Shown here piece by piece: positions 1 to 19,880 of a DNA stretch of 32,000 nucleotides. The stretch's first letter is position 1. Each line of letters begins with the position of its first letter. The notes below the pieces were generated by a model that saw only the letters and a list, made by a program, of their open reading frames with translations, did no database searches and was not told the DNA's origin. Source of the stretch: Geotalea daltonii FRC-32 (lineage in GTDB: Bacteria; Desulfobacterota; Desulfuromonadia; Geobacterales; Geobacteraceae); the NCBI RefSeq assembly GCF_000022265.1, contig NC_011979.1:1200001-1232000 (forward strand), given 5' to 3'. Made by a program: the position numbers and the translations under genes.

Positions 1-794
1 TCGTTTACCACCTGTCCCTCCACCATGAAATGCATATCCTTGACGATGGCGGGGCCGCCGACCCTTTCCGTAACATGCCGGTCGCCGATATTCATGCCGC
101 CGGTGAAGCCTTTCTTGCCGTCTACCACCAGAATCTTTCGGTGATTGCGCAGGTTGACATAGCCCCCTTGACGCAATGGGAGGAATCTGCCCACTTTTAC
201 CTTTGAACCTTTCAGTAGTTTACGTGCCGTGGGGCGCGAGTATTTCTCCCCAAGACTGTCGATAATGACCCGCACCTCGACCCCTCGCTCCGCTGCATCG
301 GTCAGTGCCGCAACGAATCTCCGGCCGGTGGCGTCGCCATCGAAGATATAGGTACTCAGGTTGATGGTGCTGGTGGCGCTGTTGATTGCTTCCAGCATGG
401 CTGGGTAGGCGCCTTCGGCATTTTCCAGTGGAGTGAGCCGATTTGCCGGCAAAAGATCGGCTATTACGACGCGGTCGGCCAAGGAGCGCAGTTCCTGCAG
501 ATGTTCAGTGCCTGGGGGAAGGGAACAGGCTTTCTGCTGTTTTCTGACCAGAGAGAAATTCCCCCATCCCGCCAGTCTCTGTCCGCTTTCCAGCCATTGA
601 CGCGCTCTCCGCGAGATGCGATTGATGCCCATGCTCCAGTAAAGGAGCGGCCCGAAGAGAGGTAAGGTGAGGCAGACGACGATCCAGCCCAGGGCAGATC
701 GCGGGTCACGTTTCAAAAGCAGGGCGTGACCCGCGGAAATCAGCCCCAGCGCGGCGAGCGAGCTAAAAAGAAGACCAACCAGAACGTGATCCAA
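1..794 (-). CDS. cls: cardiolipin synthase (phospholipase D superfamily), N-terminal ~264 codons; the 3' end lies outside the window
   Basis: Absent from the ORF track because it runs off the window edge. Hand translation of the minus strand from TTG at 794 (AAGGAGG just upstream) gives (M)DHVLVGLLFSSLAALGLISAGHALLLKRDPRSALGWIVVCLTLPLFGPLLYWSMGINRISRRA. Further on it reads AEGAYPAMLEAINSATSTINLSTYIFDGDATGRRFVAALTDAAERGVEVRVIIDSLGEKY. An HxKxxxxD motif (NHRKILVVDGKKGFTGGMNIGD) lies near 80-143. I saw no in-frame stop in the stretches I translated (794-241 and ~150-1). Track ORF 464..709 is in a different frame. Confidence 0.85.
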   Translation of the reverse strand, partial: MDHVLVGLLFSSLAALGLISAGHALLLKRDPRSALGWIVVCLTLPLFGPLLYWSMGINRISRRARQWLESGQRLAGWGNFSLVRKQQKACSLPPGTEHLQELRSLADRVVIADLLPANRLTPLENAEGAYPAMLEAINSATSTINLSTYIFDGDATGRRFVAALTDAAERGVEVRVIIDSLGEKYSRPTARKLLKGSKVKVGRFLPLRQGGYVNLRNHRKILVVDGKKGFTGGMNIGDRHVTERVGGPAIVKDMHFMVEGQVVN

Positions 795-834: not shown

Positions 835-1392
835 CTAAAGCAGGTTGTATGGCGAAGCTCTCTTTACCCATTCGCTGGCCGGATATTCGGCGGCAAGACG
901 CTGGTAGGTCTCTTTCAGGTTTCCGGCATTGTGGCTTGTCTTGTAACGGCTGACACCTGTCAGGTACAGGGCTTCCGGAGCTGCGCCACTGTTCCTGTGG
1001 CTTGAAAGGACCTCATTGAAGCGGAGAATGGCATCGTTGTAATCCCCGTTGTCGAAGTCGGCCTTGCCGAGGCCGAGAAGCAGGGACGGGACCAGTTCCT
1101 CCGGTGGGAGGAAACCTATGGTGCGCTGATGCTCCTTGCCGTAAAGATCTAGAACGACGATGGTCGGCGTCCAGCCCACCCGGAAATCCTTGGCCACCTG
1201 CCCGTCGGCAGGTACTTGCAGGGGAATCATCCGTGATGTGACAAAATCGATGACATTGCTATTGGGATACGAAACCGCACCCATCTGTTTGCAGCCTATT
1301 CAGCCAGGGCTGAAGAAATCCAGCAGAACGCATTTCTTTTCAGCCTGCCCGCGGGCGAGGGCCTTGTTGATGTCGCTTTCCCATTGGATCAT
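835..1392 (-). CDS. thioredoxin-fold protein (Thioredoxin_7-like N-terminus, TPR-like C-terminus) with in-frame UGA at 1300-1302 read as selenocysteine (U-x-x-C motif); 185 codons
   Basis: Track ORFs 1300..1497 and 835..1284 are in the same minus-strand frame. They are separated only by TGA (1302-1300) plus five sense codons. The joined product reads MIQWESDINKALARGQAEKKCVLLDFFSPG-U-IGCKQMGAVSYPNSNVIDF... The likely start is ATG 1392, with GGGAGG 7 nt upstream. See finding 1. Confidence 0.7.
1265..1282 (-). promoter_or_regulatory. candidate bacterial SECIS hairpin downstream of the UGA codon
   Basis: The minus-strand RNA GGGUGCG-GUUU-CGUAUCC forms a 7-bp stem that includes two G.U pairs. The 4-nt apical loop starts with G-U, and the loop begins about 25 nt after the UGA. 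The fold was done by eye only. Confidence 0.4.
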
Positions 1393-1474
1393 GGCGGGAC
1401 CTCCCGATATTTGGTGAACTATCTTTAAAAGGTTAACGTCAGTCAAGGTGATGTCAAGAAATGTCTCTGCAGCC

Positions 1475-1502
1475 TTGCAGTTTTGCAGGGAATGCATATA
1501 AT
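1475..1502 (+). promoter_or_regulatory. candidate sigma70 promoter (TTGCAG-16 nt-TATAAT) about 200 nt upstream of rsmB
   Basis: -35 TTGCAG at 1475-1480 and -10 TATAAT at 1497-1502. Sequence match only. Confidence 0.35.
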
Positions 1503-3882: not shown

Positions 3883-4800
3883 ATGGCAACAAGCATCCTC
3901 ATAATCGATGATTCCAACCAAGTCCGGGCCCAGATCGTAAAGACCCTGCAGAAAGTCTCTCTTTTCGACGATTACCTGGAGGCGGCAGATGGTATTGAAG
4001 CCTTCAAGCTCGTTCTCAACAGTCCGGTAGATCTGATCCTCTGTGACCTGGAAATGCCACGCATGGATGGCTTTAAATTCATTTCCATGCTGCAGACGCG
4101 CGATGAACTGAAGGATATTCCGGTCATAATGCTCACTGGCCGTGAAGACCGGGATCTGAAGATAAAAGGGCTTGAGGAAGGGGCGTGCGATTACGTTACC
4201 AAGCCCTTCGATGCAGGGGAACTGGTAGCGAGGGTCAAGGTTCAATTGAAGATCAAGTGCCTGCAGGACGAGCTGAAGCGTTCCAACGAGCTTCTCAAGC
4301 AGCTCTCCAACACAGACCCGCTTACCCACCTGTACAATCGCCGCTACCTTATGGAGGCACTTGACCGGGAATACCAGCGGGCCGCGCGTAAGGAGAGTTC
4401 CCTGTCCCTGATAATCATAGACATCGATCATTTCAAGAAGGTAAACGACAATTACGGGCACCAGCAAGGGGACGTCGTATTGGCTGCGGTCGCAGCTTTG
4501 CTGAAAAAGATGGTCCGTAGCTACGATGTGGCTGCCCGTTACGGGGGGGAGGAATTCGTAGTCCTGCTTTCGGAGACGGCACTGTCCCAGGCGATGCTTT
4601 TTGCCGAACGTTTTCGCTGTGCGGTACAGGAAATCGTCTTTACCGGAAAAATGAATGGTCTGACGATTACCGTCAGCCTTGGTGTGGCCACATTCCCGTC
4701 AGCCAAGGTGGATTGCGTGGATTCGCTGTTCAGGCAGGCGGATGAAGCACTCTACAAAGCCAAACAGGGGGGTAGAAACAAGGCAGAGGCGATGTCATAA
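3883..4800 (+). CDS. response regulator receiver fused to a GGDEF diguanylate cyclase (PleD/WspR-like)
   Basis: The REC domain has ILIIDDS, DLILCDLEMPRMDG and KPF. The GGDEF domain has DPLTHLYNRRY and the active site RYGGEEF. An RxxD I-site (RSYD) sits five residues upstream of GGEEF. The start is uncertain: ATG 3883 or TTG 3862. Confidence 0.9.
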   Translation: MATSILIIDDSNQVRAQIVKTLQKVSLFDDYLEAADGIEAFKLVLNSPVDLILCDLEMPRMDGFKFISMLQTRDELKDIPVIMLTGREDRDLKIKGLEEGACDYVTKPFDAGELVARVKVQLKIKCLQDELKRSNELLKQLSNTDPLTHLYNRRYLMEALDREYQRAARKESSLSLIIIDIDHFKKVNDNYGHQQGDVVLAAVAALLKKMVRSYDVAARYGGEEFVVLLSETALSQAMLFAERFRCAVQEIVFTGKMNGLTITVSLGVATFPSAKVDCVDSLFRQADEALYKAKQGGRNKAEAMS

Positions 4801-6875: not shown

Positions 6876-6903
6876 AGACGGGGCCAGAGCCCCGTCTTTT
6901 TTT
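6876..6903. terminator. bidirectional intrinsic terminator between convergent tatA and cpoB
   Basis: The hairpin AGACGGGGC-caga-GCCCCGUCU is followed by T7 on the plus strand. On the minus strand it is preceded by an A-run and followed by GCCUUUU. Confidence 0.7.
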
Positions 6904-7729
6904 ATTTGAGATCCTTCAATTTTTCTTTGGCAATGCGCGCTTCATCCGTGTGCGGATAATCTTCCGCCACCTTTTTGTAGACGTATCGGGCGCTTTTAGC
7001 ATCTCCCAGTTCCTTGAAGGCCATGGCCTGCTTCAGCATTGCTGCTGGAATCTTCTCATTGCCGGAGTAATTCTTGATGATCTCCTGGAATTCGAGAATA
7101 GCCTGGTCGTATTTCTTTTCGCTGTAATAGGTTTCTCCCAGCCAATAATGCACGTTTGCCGCCAGGTCGTGTTTGGGGAACAGTTCCAAAAATCTGCTCA
7201 GGTACTCCCTGGACTTCTGGGGATCGCCCTTGCGCAGGGTCTCCAATCCTTTCTGGTAAAGTGCCTCAGGTGTTTGTTCGGCTTCCGCTGCTTTTGCCTC
7301 TGCCATTTTCTTCTGGAACTCATCAAAGCCTTTGTCAAGTCTGGCAAGGCGATCTTCCATGGCAGCCAGGCGCCGGTCGGTATCTTCCTTGAGCAGGGCC
7401 AGATCGTCTGCCGGCTTCTGGGCCAAGACCCGCACATCGTCGACCTTGCCGGTCAGGACCTGCATGTCGACTTTGGTGCTGTCCAGGGTCGCCTGTAGAT
7501 CGGCGGCTCCCTTGCGCTGGCTTTCCATCTCCTTGTGAAAGTCCTTGATGGTCTTGTCAATCCCTTCCTTTGTCTCGCTGCGCATTCCGCCGATGTCCTT
7601 TTCCATCTTGAACAGGCGGCTCTTCATCTCGTCCATGTCCCGTTGCATGGAATCCACCGTTTCTCTTGTTGCACAACCGGCGAGAGCGATAATAAAGATG
7701 AGAGGCAAACCTCTCCTGACGAACTGCAT
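6902..7729 (-). CDS. cpoB: Tol-Pal system protein CpoB/YbgF (coiled coil plus TPR), here with a lipoprotein-type signal
   Basis: The likely start is ATG 7729 (MQFVRRGLPLIFIIALAGCATRE) with a GGGGAGG RBS. An N-terminal coiled-coil region is followed by C-terminal TPR repeats (YWLGETYYSEKKYDQAILEFQEII, AMLKQAMAFKELGD). Confidence 0.85.
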   Translation of the reverse strand: MQFVRRGLPLIFIIALAGCATRETVDSMQRDMDEMKSRLFKMEKDIGGMRSETKEGIDKTIKDFHKEMESQRKGAADLQATLDSTKVDMQVLTGKVDDVRVLAQKPADDLALLKEDTDRRLAAMEDRLARLDKGFDEFQKKMAEAKAAEAEQTPEALYQKGLETLRKGDPQKSREYLSRFLELFPKHDLAANVHYWLGETYYSEKKYDQAILEFQEIIKNYSGNEKIPAAMLKQAMAFKELGDAKSARYVYKKVAEDYPHTDEARIAKEKLKDLK

Positions 7730-7776
7730 GATTTTCAATCCTCCCCTGTACAGCAAAACTAGTTGGAACGGCATAT

Positions 7777-17967: not shown

Positions 17968-18166
17968 GAAAGGGCTCTTTTTCGCTCTGGCGCTGTCAAT
18001 CGGCGGTCTCGCCTGTGCGACGTACTCATCCCCCTTCTATCTTCCCCCCATAAGGGGGGATGCAAAGAATGCTCTCTCCCTCTGGGAGAGAGATAGAGAG
18101 AGAGAGGGTCCGTACGTCTCCGGGCAATCCCGGTTTTCTTGCCGGAACAAAAAATCTCTCCTTTCA
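17968..18166 (+). repeat. copy B of the duplicated intergenic module, interrupted by an 86-nt insertion (18026-18111)
   Basis: See findings 2 and 3. Confidence 0.8.
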
Positions 18167-18198
18167 AGGCTACTTAAAAAGGGAAAAGGAACGAAAAC

Positions 18199-19317
18199 TT
18201 GGCAAACGGTGATAAACGCGACTATTACGAGGTGCTGGAGGTAAACCGCAACGCCTCTGAAACCGAGATCAAGAAGGCATACCGGCGTCTGGCGATTCAG
18301 CATCACCCTGACAAAAATCCCGGGGACAAGGCGGCGGAAGACAGATTCAAGGAACTGACGGAAGCTTACGAAGTACTCTCCGACTCGCAGAAAAGGGCTA
18401 CCTATGATCAATTCGGCCATGCCGGCATGGCTGGGGGTGGATTTTCCTCCGGCGGCTTCGGTTTCGGAGCCGGTTCCCCCTTTGGTGACATCTTCGGTGA
18501 CATCTTTGGCGATGTCTTCGGCGGCAGGCCGCGCAGCCGCGGCAAGCGTGGAGATGACCTGCTCTATAACATGGAGATAACCTTTGAAGAGGCTGCCTTC
18601 GGCGTCGAGAAGAAGGTAGAGGTTCCCTATGCCAAGCGTTGCGAAAGCTGCGGCGGCAGCGGCGCCAAAGTCGGTACCGAGCCTAAAACTTGTCCTACCT
18701 GCCGAGGTGCCGGCCAGGTCCGCTTTCAGCAGGGCTTCTTCAGCGTCAGTAAAACCTGTAGCCATTGTAACGGGGAAGGGAAAGTGGTGGACAATCCCTG
18801 TCCCGATTGCCGGGGAGCCGGAACGGTAAGGGATAAGAAGACTTTGTCGGTGAAGGTTCCGGCCGGGGTCGAAACTGGCAATCGGCTCAAGCTTTCCGGC
18901 GAGGGGGGGCAAGGCTCCAAGGGGGGCTCAAACGGCGACCTGTATGTGGCCCTTGCCGTCAGGGAACATCCCATATTCAAGCGGGAAAACAACGACGTCG
19001 TTTGCGAGATCCCCATCAGCTACACTCAGGCTGCACTGGGCTGCGAGTTGGAAATTCCCACCCTGGACGGCAAGGCCAATCTGAAAATACCGGAGGGTAC
19101 CCAATCGGGCAAGCTGTTCCGCATTCGTGGCAAGGGGATTCAGGTGCTGCAGGGATACGGCAGGGGAGATCACCTGGTCATAATCAAGGTGGAAACGCCG
19201 ACCAATCTGACCAAGCAGCAAAAGGAACTGTTGGAAGAGTTTGCCAGGATCAGCGGCGAGGATGTGAACCCCATGCGGAAAAACTTCTTCTCCAAGGTTA
19301 TGGACCTGCTCCATTGA
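18199..19317 (+). CDS. dnaJ: molecular chaperone DnaJ (J domain, G/F region, four CxxCxGxG zinc fingers)
   Basis: TTG start giving (M)[20 protein letters not shown], a [11 protein letters not shown] region, and [24 protein letters not shown] and CPDCRGAG. Confidence 0.95.
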
Positions 19318-19349
19318 ACGGCGTAAGGGGAATCGGCATCAGATCAGGG

Positions 19350-19880
19350 ATGGCTGTGGCGGTTTTCGCCATGGCCATTCTTTGTCTAACTCCTTTGTCG
19401 ACAAATGCCGGTGGCAGTCATACGGCCAGCACCACCCTGCTGCGTAATCAGGAGTATGGCGATGCCCTGGTGAAAGGCCTCAGGGATGCCCGCCGTAGTG
19501 TTATCTGTTCCTTTTACCTGTTCAAGGTCACCGAAGCGCGCAACAATCGACCGAGAACCATCGTTGCCGAGCTGATCAAGGCTGCCCGGCGCGGCGTGGA
19601 TGTAACAGTTATCCTGGAAACGAGCAATGATCTGAAAGACAAGCTCAATGATGAAAACCGAAAGACAGCGGCTCTTCTTACCAAAGGGGGAGTCAAGGTC
19701 TTCTTCGATCTGCCCGGCGTAACCAGCCATCTTAAAACTGCCGTCATAGACAGCCGTTATGTTTTTATCGGCAGCCACAACCTTACCCAAAGCGCCCTGC
19801 AGTACAATAACGAACTTTCGGTCATGATCGATTCTCCTGAGATGGCAGCGGAGATCAAAACATACCTGAACCGCCTCTAG
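19350..19880 (+). CDS. secreted phospholipase D / Nuc-like single-HKD protein
   Basis: The likely start is ATG 19350, giving the signal-like N-terminus MAVAVFAMAILCLTPLSTNAGG. There is one HxKxxxxD motif (HLKTAVIDSRYVFIGSHNLT). About 176 aa. The upstream part of track ORF 19002..19880 overlaps dnaJ. Confidence 0.8.
   Translation: MAVAVFAMAILCLTPLSTNAGGSHTASTTLLRNQEYGDALVKGLRDARRSVICSFYLFKVTEARNNRPRTIVAELIKAARRGVDVTVILETSNDLKDKLNDENRKTAALLTKGGVKVFFDLPGVTSHLKTAVIDSRYVFIGSHNLTQSALQYNNELSVMIDSPEMAAEIKTYLNRL

Follow-up and report, generated by a model that had tools for sequence, protein, structure and literature searches.

An in-frame UGA in a thioredoxin-like gene of Geotalea daltonii FRC-32 very probably encodes selenocysteine

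Introduction

Two open reading frames (ORFs) on the minus strand of Geotalea daltonii FRC-32, at 1300..1497 and 835..1284 of a 32,000-nucleotide (nt) stretch of contig NC_011979.1 (positions 1,200,001 to 1,232,000; hereafter the window), lie in a common frame whose sole interruption is a TGA at 1302-1300. This raises the question of whether the locus holds two genes, the remains of one, or a single gene in which UGA is read through, with or without selenocysteine (Sec). A first-pass annotation of the DNA had opted for a selenoprotein, and the analysis presented here supports that choice: window 1392-835 on the minus strand is very probably a Sec-decoded selenoprotein gene. The continuity of the gene, the pairing of Sec with Cys among its relatives, the conservation and covariation of a downstream Sec insertion sequence (SECIS), the fold of the product and its identity with a described family were all observed. 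Findings that would speak against a selenoprotein had been named beforehand (homologues split into two proteins, no Cys or Sec aligned with the UGA, no conserved stem-loop, no Sec-decoding machinery in the genome); each was analysed or looked up, and none of the outcomes refutes that reading.

One reading frame across an in-frame UGA

The shared frame and its lone in-frame TGA, as first described, were confirmed by reading of the sequence, by the ORF listing and by translation. The TGA is followed directly by ATA GGC TGC AAA CAG ATG, the ATG being that of the second ORF (1284-1282), so that the UGA and the three codons after it (1302-1291) spell a U-I-G-C redox motif. An ATG at 1392-1390 lies exactly 30 codons 5' of the TGA and 7 nt after a Shine-Dalgarno-like GGGAGG (1400..1405, minus strand), in agreement with the ribosome-binding site, start codon and 30-residue upstream piece proposed at first. 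Read-through from this ATG gives a product of 185 amino acids (aa) with the UGA as residue 31 (...VLLDFFSPG-U-IGCKQMGAVSYP...). The predicted complete coding sequence occupies 835..1392 on the minus strand (185 codons and the stop codon TAG at 837-835), as judged from translation and from alignment to Cys-containing homologues. The UGA (1300..1302) is assigned as the Sec codon, at the first position of U-I-G-C, from the aligned codons of related loci and from the U of published family members. Its placement at the head of a U-x-x-C motif after strand beta1 (VLLDF), predicted at the outset, agrees with the sequence, with the alignment to Cys homologues and with a structure model.

Translated orthologous loci also begin at a Met equivalent to ATG 1392 (MIxWE...). 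A putative sigma-70-like promoter (TTGACT-17-GATAGT, 1418..1446, minus strand; 9/12 matches in a consensus scan, a pattern match only) falls between this codon and ATG 1497, where the mechanically called ORF starts, which is consistent with 1392 as the true start. If real, this promoter would leave ATG 1497 outside the transcript.

Sec and Cys forms among related loci

A protein search with the window product returned two classes of homologue. Full-length proteins of 186 aa, for example from Geomonas, carry C-I-G-C aligned onto the UGA motif (SPE-C-IGCKQM against SPG-U-IGCKQM in the window), placing Cys at exactly the residue occupied by the UGA. The second class consists of entries of 149-151 aa that cover 81% of the query and start at the Met five codons after the UGA. 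These might be taken as evidence for homologues split into two proteins, and the DNA tells otherwise: they are truncations by gene callers, and the sequence upstream of them keeps the 30 codons and the TGA.

One genome per species was scanned for related loci, the DNA was translated and the codon aligned with the window UGA was extracted. Among the 80 loci found, this codon is TGA in 72, TGC in six and TGT in two, and is never TAA or TAG; the expectation that Cys or Sec would align with the UGA is thus borne out. TGA forms occur in Geobacteraceae, Syntrophaceae/Syntrophorhabdus, Desulfomonilaceae, Desulfobacteria, Nitrospiraceae, Thermodesulfovibrionales, Ca. Brocadia and other metagenome-assembled genomes. 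Those of anammox Planctomycetota (Ca. Brocadia; L034, L042, L061, L064, L072, L075) and of Nitrospirota (Nitrospiraceae/Thermodesulfovibrionales; L038, L050, L051, L069, L076, L077) carry a near-identical SECIS. The TGA form is therefore present in at least 72 species-level genomes, against the 14 organisms in which the family was counted in 2016 (Peng et al.). The Cys forms are limited to a Geomonas-type clade (L012, L015, L020-L024 and L029; codon near position 4091 in each). Since the Sec users on record include relatives such as G. bemidjiensis, this clade represents a switch between Sec and Cys without loss of the Sec trait.

At every TGA locus, the roughly 30 codons upstream of the TGA encode a conserved N-terminal segment. 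Within the 20 upstream codons analysed (-20 to -1), variation falls mostly at third positions, as illustrated by the Pro codon at -2, with entropies of 0, 0.11 and 1.85 bits at its first, second and third positions; this pattern indicates that the upstream codons are translated in this frame. Neither frameshifts nor additional stops were seen in the translated orthologous loci.

The family to which these proteins belong has been described. Zhang, Romero, Salinas and Gladyshev reported in 2006 a selenoprotein family named "Thiol:disulfide interchange protein", with members in G. metallireducens, G. uraniumreducens and Syntrophus aciditrophicus and sequences given in Additional file 4 (PMC1794560); that U-x-x-C thioredoxin-like selenoproteins are known in Geobacter had been stated at the outset. 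The G. uraniumreducens member is printed there as MIKWETEMSKALARGQAEKRTILLDFFNPGUIGCKQMDAVTYPNAKV... (PMC1794560). In BLASTP comparisons the window protein shares 65% identity with this member (E 2e-100, 185/186 residues) and 50% with that of G. metallireducens (E 1e-70), and the U of both published Geobacter members aligns with the window UGA.

A conserved hairpin downstream of the UGA

A hairpin with the sequence GGGUGCG-GUUU-CGUAUCC had been noted at 1282-1265, with its loop about 25 nt after the UGA. It is present there on the minus strand as a predicted bacterial SECIS (1265..1282), with a 7-bp stem (1282-1276 paired with 1271-1265) that begins 17 nt downstream of the UGA and an apical loop GUUU (1275-1272) that begins 24 nt after the A of the UGA. 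The hairpin is itself translated, as G-A-V-S-Y-P. The consensus of bSECISearch calls for a loop of 3-9 nt on an upper stem of 4-16 bp (PMC13188914, Fig. 2 legend), a G at the first or second position of the loop or at both (commonly G[G|U]), a spacing of 16-37 nt between UGA and loop, and a minimum free energy no higher than -7.5 kcal/mol (PMC13188914). With a loop of 4 nt on a stem of 7 bp, G at the first loop position, a spacing of 24 nt (columns 4-27 of alignment A3) and an energy of -8.0 kcal/mol for the isolated hairpin, the window element falls within the published model on all four counts.

For comparison across loci, 69 distinct TGA-form sequences were aligned without gaps; the spacing between UGA and loop is invariant, with no insertions or deletions in any locus. 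RNAalifold returned a single helix (columns 21-26 with 33-38), and this 6-bp core stem is preserved in all 69 sequences. For the 7-bp version 93% of cells are paired, against 20-70% with a shifted 3' partner. Pair 23:36 covaries, being A-U in 45 of the Sec forms, G-C in 16, G-U in five and C-U in three; column 23 falls on the middle base of an Asp/Gly codon and column 36 on the synonymous position of a Tyr codon. Pair 25:34 is G-U in 63 sequences and A-U in six; the Brocadia loci have A-U here. The apical loop starts with GU in 72/72 TGA-form loci. Third positions of two codons are frozen, as G at codon +10 (Thr/Ser; 71/71) and as T at codon +7 (70/71), whereas other four-fold sites vary by 1.4-2.0 bits. 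The element is near-invariant across TGA-form loci, where it fixes the peptide M-[D/G]-A-V-[T/S]-Y-P.

In the eight Cys forms the hairpin is broken: ACC or AGC codons are found, Phe stands in place of Tyr, and the folding energy is 0 to -5.6 kcal/mol. The combination A-C at pair 23:36, seen in none of the Sec forms, occurs in 6/8 of the Cys forms. Covariation, frozen synonymous sites and loss in Cys forms together bear out the suggestion that the stem-loop would be conserved in orthologues.

These data bear directly on the reading of the locus as a pseudogene, namely a gene for a thioredoxin-tetratricopeptide repeat (TPR) protein in which TGC or TGT has mutated to the nonsense codon TGA. A single base change would suffice for this, and neither RefSeq nor other pipelines carry a full-length product. 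Set against it are the occurrence of the same TGA in 72 of 80 species-level genomes from several phyla with no TAA or TAG at the site, the coding constraint that persists in both halves of the gene, and a dedicated RNA hairpin that tracks the TGA and is absent from Cys forms. The comparative data effectively refute a pseudogene, to which we give next to no probability.

Domains and fold of the product

Domain searches were carried out with the joined product, with Cys substituted for the stop. Residues 17-101 match Pfam Thioredoxin_2 (PF13098) at 35.3 bits, above the gathering cut-off of 27. The tail (residues 102-175) yields sub-threshold Pfam TPR matches (TPR_16, 1.8e-6) and an NCBIfam YbgF match (3e-9) that is under its cut-off. 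In the NCBIfam scan no model exceeded its cut-off; the head of the protein matched DsbD, TsoB and the VPGUxxT family weakly and the tail YbgF/CpoB weakly. A profile search of PDB sequences related the tail to CpoB (6g5s, 1.2e-8) and the head to a Bacteroides disulphide isomerase and to the gamma domain of DsbD.

An AlphaFold model was built for the Cys homologue P0004, which is 63% identical to the window protein (mean predicted local distance difference test score, pLDDT, 96.5; predicted template modelling score 0.91). It places beta1 at residues 21-27, a helix at 32-41 and a TPR-like tail of helices at 98-185. Cys31, which aligns with the UGA, lies at the N-terminal end of helix 32-41; in the model this is the classical geometry of a thioredoxin active site. 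From Pfam, AlphaFold and Foldseek, a thioredoxin-fold domain is predicted for approximately residues 1-101 (1090..1392, minus strand), in which beta1 (VLLDFFS) is encoded 5' of the UGA and alpha1 carries the redox motif at its N-terminus. A C-terminal TPR-like helical domain of CpoB/YbgF type is predicted for approximately residues 102-185 (838..1089, minus strand) from the sub-threshold Pfam and NCBIfam matches, the PDB profile and the helices of the model. Neither a signal peptide or hydrophobic N-terminus nor a membrane domain was found in the window protein. The N-terminal residues are hydrophilic and form a helix of the fold, so the selenoprotein is most likely cytoplasmic.

The fold is also informative on whether the locus could instead yield two products, a 30-residue peptide ending at the UGA and a 149-residue TPR protein initiated at ATG 1284, with read-through being irrelevant. 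That ATG lies five codons past the UGA, gene callers pick it, and Met is invariant at this position in all homologues. The Met is, however, equally invariant in Cys forms, which have no stop, and this marks it as a structural residue; moreover, ATG 1284 has no Shine-Dalgarno sequence upstream (AAUAGGCUGCAAACAG). The 149-aa piece would be missing beta1, the helix before it and the first residue of the redox pair, all parts of a fold modelled with a pLDDT of 96.5, in line with the initial remark that the halves make no sense alone, and the 30 codons upstream of the UGA are conserved as protein in every locus. Two separate products are accordingly judged very improbable.

Genetic code and Sec decoding

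A full-length protein would likewise result if UGA were read without Sec, by a near-cognate Trp or Cys tRNA or under a reassigned code, and the Geomonas forms indicate that Cys is acceptable at residue 31. In the window, however, TGA is the stop codon of 8/20 confidently identified housekeeping genes, which points to the standard genetic code with no reassignment. A hairpin that is conserved, has a GU loop and is canonically spaced is the specific signature of SelB-dependent decoding, and the host is documented as a Sec user: a table of Sec-utilizing organisms includes G. daltonii FRC-32 and credits it with 12 selenoproteins (PMC5029168, Table S2). Read-through without Sec is thus considered extremely improbable.

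The SelA sequence of G. uraniumreducens, as printed in PMC1794560, was used as a query for the decoding machinery. Genomes with the TGA form that gave SelA matches are those of G. toluenoxydans, Geotalea sp. SG265, G. pickeringii and Geobacter sp. AOG1. The G. toluenoxydans selA shares a 1.44-Mb contig with the selenoprotein orthologue, which differs from that of G. daltonii at one of 149 residues (99% identical). Neither selB nor selC was found in the selA neighbourhood.

Several observations weigh against a selenoprotein, or limit what can be claimed of it. The 60 nt after the UGA (centroid -9.2, minimum free energy -11.8) fold no better than shuffled sequence (z = -0.05). Two-sided covariation is seen at one stem pair only, the remaining pairs being invariant or varying on one side, and part of the stem conservation could reflect amino-acid constraint. 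Rfam searches of the whole window at the gathering threshold, and of 700-1700 at E <= 10, gave no relevant family. The genes selA, selB, selC and selD are absent from the 32,000 nt of the window by gene annotation, a tRNA scan of which detected no tRNA gene, and no match named G. daltonii was among the best 120 of the SelA search. The family is classed in reviews as "predicted with high confidence", that is, at the level of prediction (PMC13188914). Lastly, what the protein does biochemically and what its TPR module is for are both inferred from the fold only.

As to the hairpin, the support for this predicted element is comparative, not energetic. The only Rfam match, to snoR20a, is on the opposite strand and was discarded as spurious. 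The gene content of the window is housekeeping in nature (rsmB, rpe, nadA, tol-pal, hemW, hrcA, dnaK, larBC, cinA, recA, pilT, alaS). The SelA of G. toluenoxydans forms a cluster of one member in the protein database, and the want of a G. daltonii SelA there is probably a gap in the collection.

Proposed mode of decoding and function

On the selenoprotein reading, translation would begin at ATG 1392. At the UGA at codon 31 the hairpin (stem 1282-1265, loop GUUU) would act as a bacterial SECIS that recruits SelB-GTP-Sec-tRNA(Sec), and selenocysteine would be inserted in place of termination by release factor 2. The ribosome would then melt the hairpin and read it as G-A-V-S-Y-P. The predicted product has a thioredoxin fold with U31-I-G-C34 as a selenylsulfide/selenol-thiol redox centre at the N-terminus of alpha1, and is most likely a thiol-disulfide oxidoreductase. 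Going by the fold, the CpoB/YbgF-like TPR module most likely serves to bind another protein, either a partner or a substrate.

A bolder proposal can be made by analogy: the family might be a cytoplasmic counterpart of the CnoX-type chaperedoxins that depends on selenium, with a UxxC thioredoxin fold and a CpoB/YbgF-like TPR tail holding clients, and be spread far beyond 14 organisms. We regard this as rather unlikely, and if true it would leave the kind of thing described here unchanged.

Gene neighbourhood

The selenoprotein gene is followed by a gene for cardiolipin synthase and has a divergent rsmB-rpe pair as a neighbour. Clustering of the neighbourhoods of the 80 loci revealed no universal partner gene and only synteny with cls, rsmB and rpe at the level of Geobacteraceae, so no functional inference can be drawn from context. 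The cardiolipin synthase gene (window 1-794, minus strand) starts with TTG at 794, 40 nt past the selenoprotein stop, on the same strand, and runs off the start of the window; it has its own GGAGG, and no terminator-like site is found between the two genes. Cardiolipin synthase follows the selenoprotein gene in 25 of the 80 loci, mostly in Geobacteraceae. Given the short same-strand gap, the lack of a terminator-like site and this recurrence, the two genes may be co-transcribed.

Elsewhere in the window, a phospholipase-D-like ORF (19002-19880, plus strand) gives sub-threshold matches to DISARM DrmC (68.6 bits, cut-off 133), to cardiolipin synthase and to NucT; alternative ORFs overlap it at 18037-19317. 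A genuine tol-pal YbgF/CpoB gene (6902-7774, minus strand; TIGR02795, 114.6 bits) lies within the tolQ...tolB cluster, and its TPR domain is of the type that the C-terminal domain of the selenoprotein resembles.

Annotation status

It had been predicted that the gene would be mis-annotated, and this is the case. RefSeq carries only the 149-aa C-terminal piece of the G. daltonii copy (WP_012646178.1), named "tetratricopeptide repeat protein"; this ORF (835..1284, minus strand) is 100% identical to database entry P0001. In G. pickeringii a fragment of the same selenoprotein (WP_039739457.1) is named "BamD". Truncated calls of 149-151 aa comprise P0001, P0092, P0241 and about 60 further entries under unrelated names, "outer membrane protein assembly factor BamD" and "hypothetical protein" being among them. 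A few calls of 154 aa (P0062, P0082) cover slightly more, P0062 opening with MGCKQM from the Ile codon that directly follows the UGA. The published family name is itself misleading, as this small soluble thioredoxin-TPR protein is distinct from DsbD and has neither a signal peptide nor a membrane domain. The family's original citation (reference 12 of the 2026 review) is reportedly Kryukov & Gladyshev 2004.

Reviews of 2022 and 2026 keep the family, with PF13098, the motif UxxC and the representative WP_011366075.1 (2026: PMC13188914), and it was counted in 14 organisms by Peng et al. (2016). No mention of the family or of TPR was found in the BSepDB and deep-Sep papers. In practical terms, WP_012646178.1, WP_039739457.1 and dozens of metagenomic entries should be re-annotated as C-terminal fragments of a selenoprotein, and a dedicated NCBIfam model would correct the whole family. 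The locus is an unusually clean case of an RNA signal inside a coding sequence, with frozen synonymous sites, a covarying pair and decay in Cys forms. Programs for SECIS detection could be benchmarked on the dataset; it opens no new question.

Comparison with known systems

Like bacterial SECIS elements in general (those modelled by bSECISearch, of the E. coli fdhF type), the window hairpin is a stem-loop inside the coding sequence, just 3' of the UGA, with a loop starting G-U. The SECIS of E. coli fdhF has a bulged U, whereas that of the window is short and simple, without one.

The best Foldseek match to the N-terminal domain is the gamma domain of DsbD (E ~5e-7, template modelling (TM) score 0.68-0.75 when normalised to the target, 24-27% identity). 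DsbD itself is large and resides in the membrane, its gamma domain being periplasmic, in contrast to the soluble window protein of 185 aa with its TPR tail. Membership of the DsbD family was rejected: the model NF001419 gives 33.6 bits where 330 are required, the match is confined to the gamma-domain region and there is no hydrophobic N-terminus. The VPGUxxT thioredoxin-like family (NF041383) was likewise rejected, its model giving 26.1 bits where 275 are required; the window motif is SPGUIGC, with Cys and not Thr at the fourth position.

CnoX/YbbN (PDB 3qou, 3qdn) shares with the window protein a thioredoxin fold followed by TPR helices (Foldseek to 3qou, E 1.9e-6 over 195 columns). It is about 100 residues longer, and E. 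coli CnoX is not known to have a CxxC dyad, unlike the window protein with its UxxC. With a root-mean-square deviation of 11.6, TM scores of 0.41 (query-normalised) and 0.28, and no match to a family model, this is an architectural resemblance only and membership was not accepted.

The closest system is the published "Thiol:disulfide interchange protein" family. Its members have the same length (185-190 aa), the same architecture of thioredoxin fold and TPR, the same top Pfam match (PF13098) and the common motif [NS]-P-G-U-I-G-C-K-Q-M, which reads NPG-U-IGCKQM in the published proteins and SPG-U-IGCKQM in the window. What is new here is only the truncated public annotation of the G. daltonii copy; with the family published some twenty years ago, the selenoprotein reading is supported but not new. 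No difference of substance separates the window gene from the published ones, whose orthologue it is in another species of Geotalea.

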